From Patescibacteria group bacterium (GTDB lineage: Bacteria > Patescibacteriota > Patescibacteriia > Magasanikbacterales > GWA2-37-8): a stretch of DNA of 64,000 nucleotides. Below are positions 1 through 9,167 of this stretch, piece after piece. Location: assembly GCA_022710645.1 (NCBI GenBank), contig JAKLGL010000001.1, positions 167,426 through 231,425 of the forward strand. The letters are read 5' to 3'. The translations under genes and the position numbers were made by a program. Under the pieces are notes generated by a model, which was given only the letters and a program-made list of their open reading frames with translations, was not told the DNA's origin and did not search any database. Position 1 is the first letter of the stretch; every line of letters begins with the position of its first letter.

Positions 1-219
1 TCCTCGGTCATAGGCATGTTGCCGAAATATCGCGAAGAAAGACGGATGAACTTTTCGGTTTTTTCCGCAATCTCCGTCCGAAATTTTTCTTCCTCGATTA
101 ATCTCCGTTTTTCTTCATTTTTGCGTTGTCGGCGCTCTTTGAACGCATAAAAAACAGCGATACAAATAGCGATGAACGCGATGCACAGCGAAACATAAAC
201 GACTGCTTTTTCGTACATG
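1..219 (-). CDS. hypothetical membrane-anchored protein, N-terminal part only; the gene continues past the window start
   Basis: ATG at 219 with a GGAG 6 nt upstream; N-terminal TM helix (VVYVSLCIAFIAICIAVFYAF) then a charged coiled-coil region; no in-frame stop before position 1. Confidence 0.5.
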
Positions 220-291
220 GCAATCTCCTTTGTATAAATGACTATAAAATTTTCAATGAACAACATCTTAAAATAACGGATTTTTCATTAA

Positions 292-345: not shown

Positions 346-3300
346 TTAGCTATTAGGGCCTCGCAGCACTTGTGAAACAGCGTCCTTGACCATTTCCATA
401 TATTTATCCAACTTACCGCCTTTTTTCAGATAATCTTCAGCTTCTTTGATAGCTTCCAAAGCTCCATCATTATCGGAATTTCTCTTTATCATTTCCATTT
501 TCACCACAAAATCATTGACTTTCTCTTTATCCAAAGGAACACCTTTTTCATTGGCTTTTTCCAAAGCCCGAGAAAGTTTTTCCAAAGCTTTGATTTCTTT
601 TTGGATATTAAACGATTCTTTTTCCGCATCTACGGAACGAATGAAATCAACTTCTTTTTGTTTTTCTTCCAGATATTTATAAGCATCTTCAAAAGCTTTG
701 GCGGTTTGTTTTTCCGCCAAGGACAAAGAAATTTCAGCAGCTCTATTGTCTAAAGCTCCGGCCGTTGCTTTCATCCTTTCCGTTTTAATTTCTTTCAACT
801 TATTCGCTTCTTCTTGTTCTGCGGCATATCTGGCCACTTCTTCTTTGGCTTTTATTTCCGCATCATGAGCTTCCTGACGGATAGCGTCCAATTTGGCTCT
901 GTCGGCCGGATCTATGGGTTTAGCCATAACTTCATCCACTGTTTTCTCTTTATTCAATATTCCCACCAATCCGACTTTTTCCGTTTTTTCAATTTCATTT
1001 TTCAGTTCTTCTATTCTTTTTACAGCTTTAAGATAATCGGCGCTATTTGTTTCTTTGGTCGCTGTATTCAATTTCAACAAAGCCTCTTGCACTTTATCTT
1101 CTCCGGCGCCGGAATAATCTTTAGCCCAACTTTGGGCTTCTTGGACATGTGGTAATTTCTTGAAAAAATCAATATTACTTTTATCCAAACTCTTGGAAGT
1201 TTTTTCAATCACATCTGTCAACGATGATTTGTCTTCCGGAGTATTTTTCAAAGAATCCTTTACCAAAGAAGCTTTTGCCAAAATGCTTTGACTTTTTTCA
1301 AGTTGTCTATTCAATTTACTCAAATTTTCCGGATCATCCACATAACGGCGTTGTAAATTTTTGAACATTTCATCTATTTCTTGTTGGCTTTGAGCTCTTT
1401 GCGTATCAAAACTTTTTTGCATTTCTTGCCATTTCATTTCACTGGCTTTGGCGTTTATTTCTTCTTGCGCAAAAGCTTTATCTATTTTTGCTTCTTCCGC
1501 TTGCATTTCCGCCAATTTTTCTTTTTCCAACAAAGCCCGGCCGGCCGCTTCTTTGGTGTCGGCTTCTTCCTGGATTTTATTTATGATTTCTTCATTACTC
1601 AAACCCAGAGAACGCATGGCGGCTTCTTTGTGCTCACCGGCTTTGGCTAAATTCTCATAATTTTCTGCAATCATTTGTTCGGTGGACAAATCCGCGTTAA
1701 CAGATTCGGCAGTCTGTCCTCCGCCGGTTTGATTTTCTATAATCTTGATATCGCTATCTATAGTTGCTTTGATATCATCAAGCATAGAAAGTGTGCTTTT
1801 GTAATTTGCCGGAACTTCATCTTCCTGCGCTTTAAGCAAAGCTGTTTTCAAATCTTTCAAACGTCCGGCCAAATTATCCGAACCTTCCACTTTGTGTTGC
1901 GAAACCACATTTTCCAAATCGTTTAATCTCTTATTTACAACATCCATTTTTTCAACAAATTTTTGAGCTTTGGCATCGCCAAAATCTTTTTGGATATCTT
2001 TCACGGTTTTCGAATAAATCTCATCCAACTCTTTTCTGTCCGCTTTATTGAACACAGATTTGTTTTCCGCTATTATTTCTTCTCCGGTCATTTTTGGCGA
2101 TTCGTTTTTTTCCAAAGACGTTTCTGTGGTAACTTTCGTTTGAGGAATTTCCACTTTAGGTTTCGGTATTTCCATTTTGTAAGTTTCCACATTATTCTCC
2201 GTAAAACTGCCGTCGGAATTCAAAACAATTTTCGCTTCCGGATTATAAATCAAACCTACGCTTTTGCCGTTTTTCCAAAGATTATTAATTTTCAAAAACT
2301 CTTTGGTTTTCTTTTCGATAAAATCATCCACATCACCCTCGTCTTTAAACCCAAATTTTTCCGGGTCAGCCTCTATCTGTCTTTTGAAGACATCATAATA
2401 TCCGTCGCCTTTATGAATAGTAGTGTCTATTTCTACCGGCTCCGGGGTTTCGGTTGTTTCGGGGATATCGGTTGGAGATAATTTTTCTTCAGCATAAAGA
2501 GGTTCTTCTTTTTCCCAAGGAAGTTTCATATCAATATCTTCATTATTTGGAGAAGTATCATTTTCCAATCCTTGCGCCATCAAAGTTCCCGAAGCCAAAA
2601 CCTCCGAACTAATTTTCCCGGACAATGAATCTATTTTTTCAGAAAGATTGGTAGAACCAAGTGTCAAACGATCAAAATTGGCGGCAAAATTATTCAAAGC
2701 TCCACCTTTTTCCAAAACTCCGTGTTCTGTCGCATTTTTTATATTTTCCAAAGTTTTTTCAATTATTCCGGCGCCTTCTTGATGTAATTCTCCAATAGCC
2801 AAACCGCCGATACCGGCGACTCGCAACAATACACCGCTGGCTTTGATAACATCAATCACTTTCTTGGTTGCAGTTTTTTCCTTATCAAGAACATTCAATT
2901 CTTTCAGGGTTTCATTAAAAGAACCGACAGTCAATTCTTTTAAAATTCCTTTGCGTGTTTCTCCACTGCTTTCTCGACGTCTGTTTTCTTTTCTTAATTT
3001 TAAATATTTTTCAGCCGCGGCCGCAGTTCCGTAAATAACACCGCGCAAAGCATATGTGCCTGTAGCGGTAGTCAAAGTATTCAGAAAATCTTTGGCAATG
3101 GAAACTCCGCTAACTTTATTTTTGGTATAATCGTCGACAATGTCGATAACGGCGGTTTGAGCTTGTTTTTCAGTATTACCTTTTTCACTGTCATATTGTT
3201 TAACCAATTTTTTCAATTTATCTTTCATTTCTTGTTTTTCTTTCGGACTACGATCGGATTTGTTGATTTCATAAAAAAGCTCGCGAGCTCTGGCGATAAA

Positions 3301-4770
3301 AGCCGTTTCTTCTTCTTTTTTCAAATTTTCTTTGCCGACAGTTTTATTTTTTTCCGATTGACGAAGTAAAGAAGCAAATTTTTCTTTTACATTGCCTTCT
3401 TCCATTTTATGTTTGTAATAATCAGCAATATCCCCTTTTCCACCTATAGCTCTGACCAAATCTGTGGCAAATTTAACACCTAAAACCGAAGTGATTGATT
3501 TGTAAGCTGTTTCAGCAGCCATATCTCTGACTTCTTCTTTTTTCAAAACTTCTTTACTCTTTCCAAAAACCTCTTTTGTTTTATTCCAAATTTTTCCAAA
3601 AAAGCCTTTCTTTTCTTCTGTCGGTAAAACAGCTTTCTCCGGAGCGACTATGGTTTTGTCAGTGATATCTTTTAAATCCGCCAAAAAAGCCGTGCGCGCT
3701 TTTTCAAAATCCCCTCGCTCTTCATCATCTTCGGCTTTTTCAACCAAAACCAAATAAGCCTTTGCCGTATCTATGAAATCGGCAGGCATGCTTTTCGCTT
3801 CTTCACCAGAAATATATTTTTGTATTTCTTTTTTGAAAATACTTGCTTCGTTTTTCAAAATTTCCAAGTCGTTTTCCTTGGTTTTTACAGTTTCAATTTT
3901 TATCTCCGGTTTTGCTTCAGGTACGACTTTGATTTCCGGTTCGGGTTTTTCTTCTTTGGCAACAACTTTGACCACAGGTTTGACCTCTTCGACTACTTGC
4001 TGAATTTCTTTTTCTTCTTCTTTTGCCGGAATCTTTTCTTGCGGTTGAACTTCTTCTTGCGGTTTTTCAACGGTTTCAACCGTGGCTAAATTGCGAATTG
4101 ATTCTTGATTTTGCACCAATTCAGCACTTAATCTCTGTAAGGTTTTTTCCATATTTTCCGCTTTTTCTTCACTCTTTACGGAAAGCAGAGTTTCTTGAGC
4201 TTGTTTCAAAGCTTTTTCTATCTTGGTATAATTATTGATGATTTTTCTCTCCGTTTCTTTCATTTCTTCTTTCTTTTTACCTTCGGATAATTTGGCGATT
4301 TCTTCGCCGTGTTTCTCGAACTTATCTCCAAACTCCGCAAATTTTTTTGTTAAATTGTTTTTTATTTCTTCCAATTTTTTCATTTTTTCTTCTTCCGCTT
4401 TTTGAGCGTTTTCTTTTTCTTTATCATTGGTTTCCGTCTTTTCCATTTCTTTCAATGCAATATTCTGAGCCGCTTCCCATAGATAACCGGCCGCTTCGCC
4501 ATAAGCTTTTACCGCGTCTTCCTTTTTTATTTCGGCCAAAATTCTTACGGCTTCGGAATTTTTATCCGCCATATCTTTTAGAGTTTTTCTAGCGCTGTCA
4601 TTTCTTTCTTTATCGGATTTTCTAACACCTTTTTTACCTTCAAAATTTTTCTCTTTGAACTTTTCTAACGCTATCAAAAAAACCGCTTCCTGTCTTTTGT
4701 CGGAAAAAATCTTTTTTGTTTCCGGAACACCACCGCCGCGTTCCGCTTTTATAGTATTGTTAGCTGGCAT
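346..4770 (-). CDS. giant K/E-rich coiled-coil protein (1474 aa), no recognisable enzymatic domain
   Basis: uninterrupted 4.4-kb ORF; heptad-like K/E-rich sequence with proline-rich spacers (EKPEPEIKVVPEAKPEIK); no signal peptide or TM helix seen. Confidence 0.8.
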   Translation of the reverse strand: MPANNTIKAERGGGVPETKKIFSDKRQEAVFLIALEKFKEKNFEGKKGVRKSDKERNDSARKTLKDMADKNSEAVRILAEIKKEDAVKAYGEAAGYLWEAAQNIALKEMEKTETNDKEKENAQKAEEEKMKKLEEIKNNLTKKFAEFGDKFEKHGEEIAKLSEGKKKEEMKETERKIINNYTKIEKALKQAQETLLSVKSEEKAENMEKTLQRLSAELVQNQESIRNLATVETVEKPQEEVQPQEKIPAKEEEKEIQQVVEEVKPVVKVVAKEEKPEPEIKVVPEAKPEIKIETVKTKENDLEILKNEASIFKKEIQKYISGEEAKSMPADFIDTAKAYLVLVEKAEDDEERGDFEKARTAFLADLKDITDKTIVAPEKAVLPTEEKKGFFGKIWNKTKEVFGKSKEVLKKEEVRDMAAETAYKSITSVLGVKFATDLVRAIGGKGDIADYYKHKMEEGNVKEKFASLLRQSEKNKTVGKENLKKEEETAFIARARELFYEINKSDRSPKEKQEMKDKLKKLVKQYDSEKGNTEKQAQTAVIDIVDDYTKNKVSGVSIAKDFLNTLTTATGTYALRGVIYGTAAAAEKYLKLRKENRRRESSGETRKGILKELTVGSFNETLKELNVLDKEKTATKKVIDVIKASGVLLRVAGIGGLAIGELHQEGAGIIEKTLENIKNATEHGVLEKGGALNNFAANFDRLTLGSTNLSEKIDSLSGKISSEVLASGTLMAQGLENDTSPNNEDIDMKLPWEKEEPLYAEEKLSPTDIPETTETPEPVEIDTTIHKGDGYYDVFKRQIEADPEKFGFKDEGDVDDFIEKKTKEFLKINNLWKNGKSVGLIYNPEAKIVLNSDGSFTENNVETYKMEIPKPKVEIPQTKVTTETSLEKNESPKMTGEEIIAENKSVFNKADRKELDEIYSKTVKDIQKDFGDAKAQKFVEKMDVVNKRLNDLENVVSQHKVEGSDNLAGRLKDLKTALLKAQEDEVPANYKSTLSMLDDIKATIDSDIKIIENQTGGGQTAESVNADLSTEQMIAENYENLAKAGEHKEAAMRSLGLSNEEIINKIQEEADTKEAAGRALLEKEKLAEMQAEEAKIDKAFAQEEINAKASEMKWQEMQKSFDTQRAQSQQEIDEMFKNLQRRYVDDPENLSKLNRQLEKSQSILAKASLVKDSLKNTPEDKSSLTDVIEKTSKSLDKSNIDFFKKLPHVQEAQSWAKDYSGAGEDKVQEALLKLNTATKETNSADYLKAVKRIEELKNEIEKTEKVGLVGILNKEKTVDEVMAKPIDPADRAKLDAIRQEAHDAEIKAKEEVARYAAEQEEANKLKEIKTERMKATAGALDNRAAEISLSLAEKQTAKAFEDAYKYLEEKQKEVDFIRSVDAEKESFNIQKEIKALEKLSRALEKANEKGVPLDKEKVNDFVVKMEMIKRNSDNDGALEAIKEAEDYLKKGGKLDKYMEMVKDAVSQVLRGPNS

Positions 4771-4792
4771 ATTTTTAAAAAATTAGCGGTAA

Positions 4793-5131
4793 TTATTTTT
4801 TTAATTCTTCTTCCATTTGTCTCAACTTTTCGGAAAATTCAGTATCAGTTTTTTCATTTTTCTTTTCAAAATCTTTTTTGACGGCCAAGAGAGCTTTTTT
4901 CATTTTTTCTTCTATCACTTCAGTTTTGCTTTCGGTATAAAATTCATCTACGAGTTGCGACAATTTTTCCATCTGAGACAAAGTCATCTCTTGGATAAGG
5001 TCTATGATTTCCAATTTTTCTTCCGGAGTCGCCGATAAAGAAGCGACAAAATAAGCCAGCTTTTGACCCAAAGCTGCGGCTTTTGTTTGTTCGTCCGAAG
5101 ACAAACCGAAATTATTATTCGGTGAGTTCAT
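4793..5131 (-). CDS. hypothetical protein (112 aa)
   Basis: ORF tightly packed in the same-strand gene array. Confidence 0.5.
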   Translation of the reverse strand: MNSPNNNFGLSSDEQTKAAALGQKLAYFVASLSATPEEKLEIIDLIQEMTLSQMEKLSQLVDEFYTESKTEVIEEKMKKALLAVKKDFEKKNEKTDTEFSEKLRQMEEELKK

Positions 5132-5132
5132 A

Positions 5133-5315
5133 TTAAAAATCTTTTAGATTAGTGATTCTGTTTTTAATTTTTTGCATTTTTTCTCTGTCTATCGCGGACA
5201 ATACTTCTCTATGAAGCTCTTCTTCTTGTTTTTCAAGTAACTTCAAACAGTCCTCTATTTGTAAGAAAACATTTTCTAATTTTTTATATAATTCTTTTTT
5301 TGTTGGTTCCTCCAT
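5133..5315 (-). CDS. hypothetical small coiled-coil protein (60 aa)
   Basis: ORF 1 nt from the downstream gene; charged helical sequence. Confidence 0.4.
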   Translation of the reverse strand: MEEPTKKELYKKLENVFLQIEDCLKLLEKQEEELHREVLSAIDREKMQKIKNRITNLKDF

Positions 5316-5327
5316 ATTTTTCAGAAT

Positions 5328-5939
5328 TTAAGCGCCGAAAACATGATGTTTTCTATAACGCAAAATCCATAAAGAAGCGATCAAACAACCGACTGCAAAA
5401 CCCAATACCCCGTTCATAGCAAAATTCGGTCTGGCATACCAACGAGAAGAAAGAGGTGCACTAACCGTCTTGATAACTACATCGCCGCCGACATATTCCC
5501 AACCTCGCAAAGTCACGGTTTGAGTGACAGCGCTATTTAACAAAGCGGCTTCTTCCTGAGTGGCAGCATAAGAAGTTACTCTCATCAAAGAAGTTCCGTA
5601 AACCACACTAGCTTGAACATTTTTTTGCCACTGCTTGCGTCTTTCTCTTTCAGTAGGCATATTTTTCCAAGCTTCACGATTGAAAGTAAAATTACTTTCT
5701 ATAACTTTATTGTAAAAATCAGCCGTACTCATGATTTGAGCCAAATTTTCTCCGACTCGCTCGGCGGCTTTAGCCTGGGTATAAGGATCTACTCCGTATC
5801 TGTCCTGAGTGATTATAAGAAGCTGACTATCGGCGCTATATTGTCTCGGAAATAAAGCGCTGACCCCGATACTCACAGCTGCAAAAAATAAACCCCAAAA
5901 AAATACCGCTTTCCAATGTTTAAATATTAGAGAAATCAT
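5328..5939 (-). CDS. Wzz/polysaccharide co-polymerase (chain-length determinant)-like protein, short form
   Basis: N-terminal TM followed by PRQYSADSQLLII (Wzz-like P.Y.a...l motif); C-terminal TM GVLGFAVGCLIASLWIL; extracytoplasmic middle domain. Confidence 0.55.
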   Translation of the reverse strand: MISLIFKHWKAVFFWGLFFAAVSIGVSALFPRQYSADSQLLIITQDRYGVDPYTQAKAAERVGENLAQIMSTADFYNKVIESNFTFNREAWKNMPTERERRKQWQKNVQASVVYGTSLMRVTSYAATQEEAALLNSAVTQTVTLRGWEYVGGDVVIKTVSAPLSSRWYARPNFAMNGVLGFAVGCLIASLWILRYRKHHVFGA

Positions 5940-5964
5940 AAATTAAAAATTTAAATTCTATTTT

Positions 5965-7062
5965 TTATTTAAAAATATTTTCTTTTATTTGGGCTTCCAA
6001 ATCCAAAACTTTGCCTCGTCTGAGTACTTTCAAACGGGCTTGTTCTCCTCTCAGATTATACCACAAATTTTCATTTTCAACAATTTGTCCGTTGATTTCC
6101 AAAATTATATCTCCTTTTTGTAATTTTGAATCATTTTTCAAGACACCGGTCACTAAAAAGCCTTTGACAACACCTCCGTCAGTTATCAAAATCTGCTCTG
6201 ACGAATACCATCCTTCTATAGAAAAAGTCGGATAGATTATTTGTTGTTTATTCAAAACTCCCGGTAATACCCTGTTTACATAGACACTACCGATAACTTC
6301 ATTATTTTCATTTAAAAAACCGAGAAATCTGCCTTGGTTATTTAATACCAAAGAACCGGCAGGAGCATTTTTATTTTCCAAAGTTCTAACTTTCATCGGC
6401 ACGGAATCCAGATGAGGCTTAACAGTTAAAGAATATTCGTCAGCTAAAAAATTATAACGCCAAGAATTATTTTGATACACAAAAACTTGTTCTCCCAATT
6501 TTTCATTTTCCGAAAAACCTATAACTTTAAACTGTTCGTTTTTTATTTCCGTTTCTCCGCTTTTTGTTAGGCCGCGTATTTTGAAATAAACTATTTTAGT
6601 CAACTTGTCGTAAAGTAATTTTTCAATTTTATAAGTCCTACCTTCATTATTAACCGCCGTCCAAGTGATAAAATTGTTTGATTTTTTTTCATCCGACAAA
6701 TACATAGCAAGCCAACCGTCGCTTCCGACCAACGCAGCTTCGCCCAATTTTGATTGTGAATTCAAAAAAGACACTTCTCCGGATTTTTGAGAGTTTTCAT
6801 AAACAGACATTATTTTTTGCGAAGTTTCTTTTTTGATAAATTCTTCCATCTCCACCTTTTGACTACTTCTATCAACTTGAGAAACCAACCAATAATTTCC
6901 ACCTCCCAAATCCGGCCAGATCCAACCCACAGTCATAGCAGCTCCGGTCAAACCGCCTATGAGACCGAAAAATATAGACAAAAAAATCAAACCTAACCTT
7001 TGCCATAACTGATGAAGGGATATACTGCAAGAAGGATTTGGTAGATGAGGAGGATGTGACAT
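5965..7062 (-). CDS. membrane-anchored PDZ-domain protein (HtrA-like fold; catalytic His not evident)
   Basis: N-terminal TM; C-terminal PDZ-like GDIILEINGQIV...; central region loosely trypsin-like (PAGSLVLNNQGRFLGF). Confidence 0.6.
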   Translation of the reverse strand: MSHPPHLPNPSCSISLHQLWQRLGLIFLSIFFGLIGGLTGAAMTVGWIWPDLGGGNYWLVSQVDRSSQKVEMEEFIKKETSQKIMSVYENSQKSGEVSFLNSQSKLGEAALVGSDGWLAMYLSDEKKSNNFITWTAVNNEGRTYKIEKLLYDKLTKIVYFKIRGLTKSGETEIKNEQFKVIGFSENEKLGEQVFVYQNNSWRYNFLADEYSLTVKPHLDSVPMKVRTLENKNAPAGSLVLNNQGRFLGFLNENNEVIGSVYVNRVLPGVLNKQQIIYPTFSIEGWYSSEQILITDGGVVKGFLVTGVLKNDSKLQKGDIILEINGQIVENENLWYNLRGEQARLKVLRRGKVLDLEAQIKENIFK

Positions 7063-7167: not shown

Positions 7168-7959
7168 TCATTTCCATTTAACTAAAAACAAAAAACCGAT
7201 AAATAAAATAAAATTTATAATCAAAAAAATATTCTGTTTGCGCCAATTGATTCCATCTTTACTGAGATTAAAACGAACCATCAACCAAAAAACATACCAA
7301 AACCAAACCACTATCAAGCCGTTTACCAAAAACCCGAGCGGCCATAACCAAAGCGCAAATGAAAGTTCCAAAAAAGTAAAAAAACAAGCAATAACACTCC
7401 ACCATAAACGATCTTTATTTTCCAGTCCGTATTCTCTCCACCACCAATATGAAATAGAAGAAGTGATAAGAGACGCCAAAATCAAACCTAACCAAAAATA
7501 ATTAAAACTTATCAACTGAAAAGAAGATCCGGCATACAATGAACTCCAAAGTAACGCCAAACCGAAAACATCCATCAGTAAAAGCCAACGACGATAAGGT
7601 TTTATGACAAAGTTAATAACTCCCGGTTCACTTTTGGTCGGTAAAAGCCAAAAACTGACTCCGGAAAAAATAACAAATAAAGCCACAGTCAAAGTTAACG
7701 CCTGACCCCACTCCATAAAGATGAGAGATAACAACACCCCGACGTTAAAGAAAAGAAGTGAAATAAAATGACGTAAACGAGAAAGCTCCTTCGGATAATA
7801 AACCAGACGGATAAAGAAAATCCACAAAACAGTCCTTAAAACAAACCAAGCTAAAAGAGTTTGCCAATGCCCCAATCTAAACAACCCCCAAAACATAACC
7901 AAATTGGCTATAACATCTATAAAAGCCGCTAATTTGGGATGAAAAGAAATATTTTTCAT
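7168..7959 (-). CDS. polytopic integral membrane protein (about 8 TM, Trp-rich)
   Basis: hydrophobic segments throughout; ORF of 263 aa. Confidence 0.65.
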   Translation of the reverse strand: MKNISFHPKLAAFIDVIANLVMFWGLFRLGHWQTLLAWFVLRTVLWIFFIRLVYYPKELSRLRHFISLLFFNVGVLLSLIFMEWGQALTLTVALFVIFSGVSFWLLPTKSEPGVINFVIKPYRRWLLLMDVFGLALLWSSLYAGSSFQLISFNYFWLGLILASLITSSISYWWWREYGLENKDRLWWSVIACFFTFLELSFALWLWPLGFLVNGLIVVWFWYVFWLMVRFNLSKDGINWRKQNIFLIINFILFIGFLFLVKWK

Positions 7960-8111
7960 GGTATATATTTATTACAGCTTAATATAGCACAAAATAAGAA
8001 AAAAATCAAATCTGGCTAAAATTTAAAGATTAAAAAAAATAAAGATTTAAAAAATGATAAAGGGGCTTGATTTTATTCATTTTTTCTGCTAAAATTACCA
8101 CATATAAACAT

Positions 8112-8558
8112 ATGCCTCAATTAGCTGACAATAAAAAAGCTTTTTTTGATTATGAGATTCTCGAAAAATTCGAGGCTGGCTTAATGTTGCTCGGACATGA
8201 GGTTAAGTCTGCAAAAAACGGACAAATAAGTCTAAAAGGGGCTTTTATCACCTTTCATAACAATAAAGCTTATTTAACCAACGCAACTATAAGCAAATAT
8301 AAACAAGCTGGCAAATTGGATAATTACGACCCGACCAGAAGTAGACAGGTTTTACTTCATAAGAAAGAAATTCGCTATTTACAGGGAAAATTTGCAGAAA
8401 AGGGCTTGACAATCGTTCCTATTTCGGTGTATACTAAAAACCGCTTAGTTAAAATAGAAATTGCCGTAGCTCGCGGTAAACATACTTTTGATAAGAGAGA
8501 GACTCTCAAAAAAAAGGATGTGGAAAGAGAGATGAGAAGGTCCTTACACGACAAATAA
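8112..8558 (+). CDS. smpB: SsrA-binding protein SmpB
   Basis: KKAFFDYEILEKFEAGLMLLGHEVKS...ISLKGAF SmpB signature; sits next to the tmRNA gene. Confidence 0.9.
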   Translation: MPQLADNKKAFFDYEILEKFEAGLMLLGHEVKSAKNGQISLKGAFITFHNNKAYLTNATISKYKQAGKLDNYDPTRSRQVLLHKKEIRYLQGKFAEKGLTIVPISVYTKNRLVKIEIAVARGKHTFDKRETLKKKDVEREMRRSLHDK

Positions 8559-8676: not shown

Positions 8677-9067
8677 GGGGATGTTTGGTTTCGACAAAAG
8701 TTCCTTGACAAGCTGGCATACCGGGGCGGCATTTGGCCTCGATAAAAACCAAATGCATCAAATAAGTGCCAACTTATTTTCAAAAGCCAGAGCAATATTC
8801 GCTAACACGATGAGCTTTGCGCCTGCCATGGCCTAAATAAGGCTTCATGCGCCATCGTGCCGATAATACGAAGTAGTCGGTTGCGGTGTCACTTACTTCG
8901 CGTAGGTTCAAATTCGTACCGACGGATTTGTTCCGAAGGCATTTCGGTTAAGCGTTAAAAATTCCGTTGCCCCATTATTTTAACGCCGAAAACTACCGGG
9001 ACAACTATGTATGTAGAAGGTTTGTTGAAAACTTTTTGGACGCGAGTTCGACTCTCGCCATCTCCAC
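8677..9067 (+). ncRNA. ssrA: tmRNA (ssrA)
   Basis: 5' GGGGAUGUUUGGUUUCGAC and 3' GGACGCGAGUUCGACUCUCGCCAUCUCCA tRNA-like ends that base-pair as an acceptor stem; internal tag frame ANTMSFAPAMA-stop; adjacent to smpB. Confidence 0.85.
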
Positions 9068-9167
9068 GGTCGCTTTCGCGACTAGTAAAAAGTTCATAAA
9101 GTTCATAAAGTTCCGATAAATTGATTTTATAAACTTTATAACTTTAAAAACTTTATAAACTCCGCTT

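Follow-up and report, generated by a model that had tools for sequence, protein, structure and literature searches.

A seven-gene cassette conserved in Magasanikbacteria encodes a membrane-protein triad, a putative adaptor, and a giant mosaic protein

Why would a bacterium encode a lysine- and glutamate-rich protein of 1474 amino acids (aa) close behind a relative of the polysaccharide co-polymerases (PCPs) and a membrane-anchored PDZ protein? The question is raised by a window of 64,000 nucleotides (nt), the whole stretch of DNA analysed here, from a Patescibacteria genome of the Magasanikbacterales (assembly GCA_022710645.1, contig JAKLGL010000001.1, positions 167,426 to 231,425). Patescibacteria, or Candidate Phyla Radiation (CPR), make up a large share of bacterial diversity, and their envelope and cell-contact biology is almost entirely unknown. 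The genes in question form a cassette that is present in essentially every Magasanikbacteria genome sampled. The reading favored here, with a probability of roughly 0.4, is that of a lineage-wide, two-part envelope cassette in which a membrane complex docks or anchors a giant envelope-associated protein brought to it by a cognate adaptor.

The cassette and its conservation

The initial annotation described five minus-strand open reading frames (ORFs) separated by 1–25 nt, and their coordinates and strand match exactly, with intergenic gaps of 25, 12, 1, and 22 nt. The array exceeds five genes, forming a seven-gene cassette with one extra gene at either end (Table 1). In order of transcription, the genes encode a 263-aa polytopic membrane protein, 105 nt upstream of an HtrA-like protein of 365 aa; a 203-aa PCP; two small helical proteins of 60 and 112 aa, denoted m60 and m112; the giant; and, beginning 79 nt downstream of the giant, a 504-aa protein with two transmembrane (TM) segments, whose gene leaves the window. 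Similar ORFs of 508–510 aa come after the giant in two related loci, L010 and L013. A promoter-like site is found 5′ of the first cassette gene, inside the divergent gap common with smpB, and a scan of the minus strand detected no intrinsic-terminator-like site in any cassette intergenic gap.

The claim that the array is a conserved same-strand unit holds, as the same gene order recurs in 80 species-level genomes. The five ORFs are real conserved genes, and their arrangement is not due to chance. The census drew on one genome per GTDB species and was scored with hidden Markov models (HMMs); it recovered 103 relatives of the PCP, of which the best 80 loci were kept. The polytopic, HtrA-like, and PCP genes, termed the triad, are intact in 71 of the 74 loci with enough upstream sequence, with median gaps of 7 and 26 nt and with the 263-aa ortholog directly upstream of the HtrA-like gene. 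Downstream, 45 of the 55 loci with enough sequence have a charged ORF of 900 aa or more that begins within 5 kb, and 40 of the same 55 have a small protein of ~105 aa. Six loci picked by identity of the Wzz-like protein (46–94%) all have smpB on the opposite strand and share the order polytopic protein, HtrA-like protein, and PCP, then none, one, or two small proteins, and last a giant, which measures 778–2288 aa. The record titles of the 80 loci name Magasanikbacteria and a few other Patescibacteria. About half of the cassette genomes (L009–L088) instead bear the title “uncultured Gammaproteobacteria bacterium”; this is almost certainly an error of deposition and looks like a systematic mislabelling of these metagenome-assembled genomes.

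The giants of these loci are mosaics. Forty-six of 69 are linked by BLAST, and the parts they have in common are mostly the N- and C-terminal regions. The close relative L013, whose PCP is 72% identical to that of the window, carries a giant that is 44% identical over aa 760–1016 of the window protein and 59% identical over aa 1047–1470, and its centre is entirely different. The centre of the window giant is designated type A and that of L013 type B; where the window giant has its type A domain, type B giants have glycine-zipper segments, GIIGGTALLAGIAAPAGLVAAGVLAAG in L013 being one example. Similar swaps between relatives are seen in the pairs L017/L026 and L015/L018.

The kind of small protein encoded with the giant changes with the kind of centre. 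Of 14 type A giants, 13 have an m112-like partner and none has a member of the DUF5663 family; all 25 type B giants have a DUF5663-like partner and none has an m112-like one, with zero mixed cases (counts uncorrected for shared ancestry). The pairing also holds in the reverse direction: four type A giants retrieved independently from metagenomes all have an m112-like gene directly upstream, a test that consists of four exact-protein look-ups, three of them on contigs of at most 6 kb. This covariation is the strongest functional clue in the locus. Because the adaptor type tracks the centre of the giant, the adaptor probably binds and chaperones that domain, and the pattern points to a putative physical pair of adaptor and domain that is exchanged as a cassette. 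The strictness of the pairing thus provides a concrete, testable interaction hypothesis. On one short metagenome contig (L090:51-745), a HEPN and nucleotidyltransferase pair of the toxin–antitoxin type stands directly upstream of an m112-like gene and type A giant.

On the other side of the cassette, smpB (8067-8558) and the transfer-messenger RNA gene (8677-9069, tag ANTMSFAPAMA) adjoin it directly and are divergently transcribed, followed by infC, rpmI, and rplT at 9168-10390. The smpB-infC-rpmI-rplT block flanks the cassette in six of the six loci inspected in detail. Further along, G+C content rises to 45.6% at window positions 11001-11500, against ~36%, coinciding with a tRNA-Asp gene at 11191-11265; the adjacent 198-aa ORF (11372-11968) matched no family.

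Table 1. Cassette features in the window, in order of transcription
Feature	Position (nt)	Strand	Basis or remark
Promoter-like -35/-10 site (TTGATT, 17 nt spacer, TATATT, with TG)	7981..8009	-	Consensus scan only
263-aa Trp-rich polytopic membrane protein	7168..7959	-	~8-9 hydrophobic segments; first triad member
365-aa HtrA-family pseudoprotease, membrane-anchored, DegS-like	5965..7062	-	AlphaFold2 model, Foldseek, family profile
203-aa minimal PCP (PCP/Wzz superfamily)	5328..5939	-	AlphaFold2 model, Foldseek, Pfam
60-aa helical micro-protein (m60 family)	5133..5315	-	HMM matches at equivalent position
112-aa helical protein (m112 family), proposed adaptor/chaperone	4793..5131	-	Co-occurrence with type A giants
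1474-aa giant mosaic protein	346..4770	-	Composition and domain map
Type A central domain of giant, aa 380-705	2656..3633	-	Exhaustive HMMER search, alignment A3
KGDG...RQ...PEKFGF module of giant, aa 766-870	2161..2475	-	In 59 of 218 giants and representatives
C-terminal region of giant, aa 1047-1470	361..1632	-	BLASTP against L013 giant, 59% identity
First 88 codons of 504-aa K/E-rich protein, one TM near each end	1..266	-	Seventh gene, cut by window edge

The membrane triad

The 203-aa protein, as modelled, is a PCP of minimal kind. The AlphaFold2 (AF2) model, built from 41 sequences with a mean predicted local distance difference test (pLDDT) score of 88.7, has a first TM helix (aa 9–27), a compact alpha/beta domain, and a second TM helix (aa 173–197), the hydrophobic segments themselves being aa 12–30 and 175–193. 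Foldseek aligns the model to Wzc and KpsE with probability 1.00, TM-scores of 0.56–0.64, and E-values of 6.5e-7 to 1e-5; the KpsE structures matched (8tsl, 8tsi, 8tun) come from the KpsMT-KpsE cage. The initial description of a Wzz/PCP-like protein with two TM segments is confirmed in its fold. At the level of sequence, the Pfam Wzz model (PF02706) scores 22.2 bits against a cut-off of 25.5, and among the 205 homologs found, most of the 120 matches listed carry PF02706. The area of the second TM helix combines a Pro...Pro pattern with GxxxG, through P161, the invariant P171, G180, and the invariant G184.

The extracytoplasmic base of the PCP comprises ~145 aa with a longest helix of 19 residues, the model has no long periplasmic helical hairpin or coiled coil above that base, and the cytoplasmic tail after the second TM helix is ~8 residues long. 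No kinase family was found in the cassette or the neighboring called genes, the rest of the genome not having been searched. The suggestion that the assembly acts as a chain-length ruler is therefore not supported, because the PCP lacks the ruler element, the locus lacks a kinase partner, and the cassette lacks glycan genes.

The PCP fold is known from glycan assembly systems, which raises the alternative that the triad is a polymerization or export complex for a capsule, a teichoic-acid-like polymer, or an S-layer glycan. The polytopic protein would then be a novel analogue of Wzy, a ligase, or a flippase under the regulation of the PCP, and the adaptor and giant an unrelated neighbor kept by gene order. 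Homologs of the PCP do bear the Joint Genome Institute (JGI) name “capsular polysaccharide biosynthesis protein”, genes for a WecG-type glycosyltransferase or Wzy_C occur within a few kb in L004, L005, and L006, and triad and giant are each found without the other. However, families of glycosyltransferases, Wzy, Wzx, sugar-nucleotide enzymes, and bacterial tyrosine kinases (BY-kinases) were not detected in the cassette, nor did any of its seven proteins match a polymerase, flippase, or ABC transporter family; the polytopic protein matches neither Wzy, Wzx, O-antigen ligase, nor any other Pfam or PDB family. The missing helical extension and the short tail of the PCP also speak against this alternative, as does the tight spacing of 12–25 nt to the adaptor and giant genes, a proximity kept in 45 of 55 loci. 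A glycan complex is accordingly considered unlikely.

The 365-aa protein is predicted to be an HtrA relative that binds rather than cleaves. It begins with a cytoplasmic PPHLP motif (aa 4–8, nt 7039-7053) that is 88–96% conserved among 195 family members, continues through a TM anchor (aa 25–48, nt 6919-6990) into a dead trypsin-like domain (about aa 84–272), and ends in a PDZ domain (about aa 275–364, nt 5971-6240) whose Pfam score of 23.0 bits is just under the cut-off of 23.2. The AF2 model has a pLDDT of 84.8, with MucD, DegS, DegP, and HtrA of M. tuberculosis as its best Foldseek matches (E about 1e-14), and the family profile matches DegP at E 3.6e-7 over the protease and PDZ1 domains. 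When the window protein is aligned to DegP by HMM, its D124, K156, and A235 stand in place of the catalytic residues His105, Asp135, and Ser210. Across the 195 members, the His105 column has Asn as its commonest residue and His is not common; the Asp135 column holds Gly in 113 and Asp in 5; and in the Ser210 column Ala, Val, and Pro dominate, Ala being commonest, with Ser in 21. The loss of the catalytic His, remarked on in the initial annotation of this membrane PDZ protein, is thus borne out and extends to the Asp and Ser, family-wide.

Judged by these columns, the whole family appears to consist of pseudoproteases, structural relatives of HtrA rather than active members. Retention of the PDZ domain together with loss of the catalytic triad in 195 members favors a binding role over proteolysis, and the protein is best read as a binding scaffold. 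Given that the catalytic triad is replaced throughout, the NCBI name “S1C family serine protease” borne by some homologs is misleading; neither it nor the capsular name of the PCP homologs should be taken at face value.

The third member of the triad, the 263-aa protein, has no Pfam family and no PDB sequence match, which holds for 28 orthologs as well. Its invariant residues (R124, A143, W174, Y177, P207, W219, L226, and R229) suggest no obvious catalytic set. The protein ends in a conserved RWK or RWI at the carboxyl terminus (window positions 7168-7185), the Trp being nearly invariant. If facing outward, this end is a candidate ligand for the neighboring PDZ domain.

The giant protein and its small partners

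The giant contains 14.7% lysine, 13.9% glutamate, and zero cysteine, is proline-rich at aa 201–300 and 701–900, and has no N-terminal hydrophobic segment. It consists of a K/E-rich helical N-terminal region (aa 1–360), the type A domain, an acidic proline-rich linker, the KGDG...PEKFGF module, and a long K/E-rich C-terminus, and it has no match in Pfam, NCBIfam, PHROG, or PADLOC. Composition and hydrophobicity bear out a K/E-rich protein with proline-rich spacers and no signal peptide. Its description as a coiled coil applies to parts and not to the whole length: ~24% of its residues are flagged in a crude heptad test, in which 5% of windows exceed the 99th percentile of shuffles. The accompanying statement that it has no TM segment stands for the N-terminus and is doubtful for the centre, where three conserved Gly/Ala-rich helices (aa 426–447, nt 3430-3495; aa 572–598, nt 2977-3057; aa 638–662, nt 2785-2859) are moderately hydrophobic, with a maximum Kyte-Doolittle value (KD19) of 1.69. 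The median of this maximum is 1.9, or TM-like, for type B centres and 1.42 for type A centres. Membrane insertion of the giant, and the side of the membrane on which its ends would lie, are inferences.

An exhaustive HMMER search with aa 361–760 of the giant defined the type A domain (~320 aa) in 200 cluster representatives at E<=1e-3, of which 119 reach E<=1e-10, in proteins of 250–2400 aa. Alignment A3 contains the invariant residues G71, K73, D77, K192, N204, G211, R216, G217, Y220, K251, E260, T261, G286, R290, and G293. The extension N-terminal to the domain varies widely (median 161 aa), and at least ~290 aa lie C-terminal to it in 90% of members. No Pfam domain was found in 10 members, and the profile has no PDB sequence match. 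The KGDG...RQ...PEKFGF module is always C-terminal to the central domain and likewise has no Pfam or PDB match; a suspected LysM-like identity found no support in Pfam and PDB profile searches.

Of the small proteins, m112 has HMM matches at the same relative position with a best E of about 1e-45. In type B cassettes the equivalent position is taken by a ~107-aa member of DUF5663 (PF18908), whereas m112, which pairs with type A giants, is a separate family and does not match the PF18908 model at E<=1. An hhalign comparison with the DUF5663-like alignment gives a probability of 53% over 21 columns, a marginal similarity by which homology is not established. The m60 protein has no hydrophobic segment, and its HMM finds counterparts at the corresponding place in more than 20 loci (best E about 1e-36); the cargo module can do without it, and it accompanies giants of both types. 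Weak matches of the micro-proteins to Phage_Gp15, NFACT_N, and pepcterm_ATPase were treated as noise.

Several giants carry additional domains. Many of type B begin with a conserved domain of ~80 aa with a nearly invariant Trp and a PPKK motif (L025:11156-11455, L028:10765-11064), which is absent from the window giant; its similarity to the ribosomal L24/KOW barrel is not significant (E about 0.6), and such a small barrel might bind the PPHLP tail of the dead HtrA. Giants at the equivalent position also include WipA-like phosphatase domains in L080 and L084 (35 and 37 bits, cut-off 27) and a PP2C phosphatase domain (21.8 bits, cut-off 20.3), the phosphatase-bearing giants being L084:11259-20588, L080:13117-20585, and L074:11166-18767. 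All giants are nearly cysteine-free, with 0–5 cysteines per 1000–3000 aa, a feature counted in favor of the envelope-associated structure. A 2363-aa ORF downstream of the triad in L068 (6254-13345) is unlike the K/E-rich giants, with 326 cysteines (~14%) and 15% glycine.

These features invite a second alternative, in which the giant stays in the cytoplasm, tethered to the membrane, and organizes division or shape as a scaffold or signalling platform of the cytoskeletal type, comparable to EzrA, Scy, or SpoIIE. It would be anchored across the envelope by the triad, which it would contact by way of the PPHLP tail of the dead HtrA. A K/E-rich helical protein with a partial heptad signal and no signal peptide would suit such a role, as would the PP2C and WipA-like phosphatase domains and the conservation of the cytoplasmic proline-rich motif, which the type B N-terminal domain could bind. 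That domain, however, is missing from the window giant and its fold assignment is not significant; cytoplasmic proteins in these genomes do not usually lack cysteine almost entirely (PPDK, encoded in the same loci, contains ~1%), and fast recombination of central modules is atypical for core cytoskeletal proteins. A scaffold of this kind is therefore judged improbable.

Less probable still is a contact-dependent effector or translocator acting against or on a host cell, its centre inserting into the target membrane, the small protein serving as chaperone (as do Eag and the chaperones of type III secretion system (T3SS) translocators), and the triad as the site of export or display: CPR bacteria are widely regarded as symbionts, a mosaic, recombining architecture is combined with cognate small partners, glycine-zipper motifs abound in the hydrophobic central domains, and the WipA domains of L080 and L084 are effector-like and above the Pfam cut-off, but the cassette has no secretion ATPase or recognized secretion-system component, no candidate immunity gene is apparent, PHROG, PADLOC, and phage searches gave no matches, and a conserved C-terminus with a variable centre is the reverse of polymorphic toxins. 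An anti-phage defence system was rejected, as PADLOC models match none of the seven proteins. A phage tape-measure protein was rejected as well, given that tblastn of the central domain against 50,697 phage records and the PHROG search with the giant returned nothing and the neighbors are smpB, infC, rpmI, and rplT.

A two-part envelope cassette and its relation to known systems

The reading of the locus as a two-part envelope cassette would proceed as follows. The first part would be the invariant membrane triad of a ~9-TM polytopic protein, a dead HtrA-PDZ protein, and a minimal PCP. Rings are seen in the PCP assemblies solved to date, as in Wzc, and the KpsE ring or cage encloses the polytopic KpsMT; by analogy, the window PCP may form an oligomeric ring whose TM helices surround the polytopic protein. 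On the outer face, the PDZ domain of the dead HtrA would make it a scaffold for binding peptides, with the PPHLP tail reaching into the cytoplasm. The second part would be a swappable cargo of a ~105-aa helical adaptor (m112 or DUF5663), an optional ~60-aa protein, and the giant mosaic. The adaptor would bind the central hydrophobic domain of the giant and escort it, and the triad would dock or anchor the giant at the membrane, giving rise to an elongated envelope-associated structure. The initial annotation proposed a non-metabolic function, which is supported, and a surface-layer or fibril role, which for the giant is an inference.

Several observations weigh against this reading. The cassette encodes no ATPase or other energy source. 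The type A helices are moderately hydrophobic and accompanied by invariant K, D, R, and E residues, so the window giant may be peripheral or soluble. The PP2C and WipA-like domains of equivalent giants are easier to reconcile with a cytoplasmic or effector role than with a structural fibre, and shared ancestry may contribute to the adaptor counts. The parts are also separable: the triad lacks a downstream giant in 10 of 55 loci, and in L092, from another lineage, a pair of m112-like protein and type A giant has no triad within 10 kb upstream. Synteny of the giant with PCP and PDZ genes, the check set by the initial annotation, gives a mixed outcome: it holds throughout Magasanikbacteria and fails for the L092 homolog. 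Together, the triads without a giant and the L092 pair without a triad make the adaptor and giant the tightest unit, and the attachment of that pair to the triad is a property of Magasanikbacteria. The L092 pair sits after lgt and dsbA-like genes, and an 892-aa protein with no match on record (L092:6945-9623) precedes it, which may be that lineage's counterpart of the partner protein.

An extended and doubtful form of the docking model treats the cassette as a protein-handling machine. A PCP ring repurposed from glycans to proteins, together with a dead HtrA-PDZ holdase and the novel 9-TM protein, would insert and hold a recombining giant at the surface. The cytoplasmic adaptor would deliver the hydrophobic centre, and the displayed giant, in some versions with phosphatase domains, would mediate attachment to or manipulation of a partner cell. 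Should the triad handle a protein and not a glycan, PCP rings would have a wider range of roles than is known so far.

Searches of the literature turned up no account of this cassette or of DUF5663. The individual folds are already known; what is new is their degenerate form, their combination with four families that lack annotation (the polytopic protein, the m112 adaptor, the type A central domain, and the KGDG module), and the swappable adaptor and giant module. Two familiar envelope folds thus take an unusual form here: the PCP has neither ruler nor kinase, and the HtrA is predicted to lack protease activity.

The HtrA-like protein resembles DegS, MucD, DegP, and HtrA of M. tuberculosis in its N-terminal anchor, trypsin-like double barrel, and single C-terminal PDZ domain, and it differs from the HtrA/S1C proteases in the replacement of His, Asp, and Ser and in the conserved cytoplasmic PPHLP motif. 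The 203-aa protein shares with Wzz, Wzc, KpsE, and the Gram-positive PCP-2b proteins CapA/CpsC the arrangement of two TM helices around an extracytoplasmic alpha/beta base. Unlike Wzz and Wzc (PCP classes 1 and 2a), it has no long periplasmic helical hairpin; unlike Wzc and CapA/CpsC (class 2), it neither contains a kinase domain nor shares its locus with a kinase, and its tail is too short to activate one; and unlike glycan-linked PCPs in general, it lies in a cassette free of glycan genes. As in KpsE-KpsMT, its gene adjoins that of a polytopic membrane protein, which provides a possible precedent for a ring that encloses a partner, and the WzzE-WzyE complex, cited in bioRxiv 10.1101/2025.01.14.632903, is reportedly another PCP cage around a polytopic protein. 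The partner in the putative assembly considered here is neither an ABC transporter nor Wzy and belongs to a family without annotation.

The adaptor and giant find their closest parallel in pairs of a small chaperone and a large client, such as Eag with the prePAAR effectors of type VI secretion systems, the chaperones of T3SS translocators, and phage gpG/gpGT with the tape-measure protein. The cassette differs from these in having no sequence relationship to them and no phage or secretion-system context. Common to both are one or two small helical proteins whose genes come immediately before that of a very long helical client with internal Gly-rich hydrophobic segments; here, partner and client domain covary strictly.

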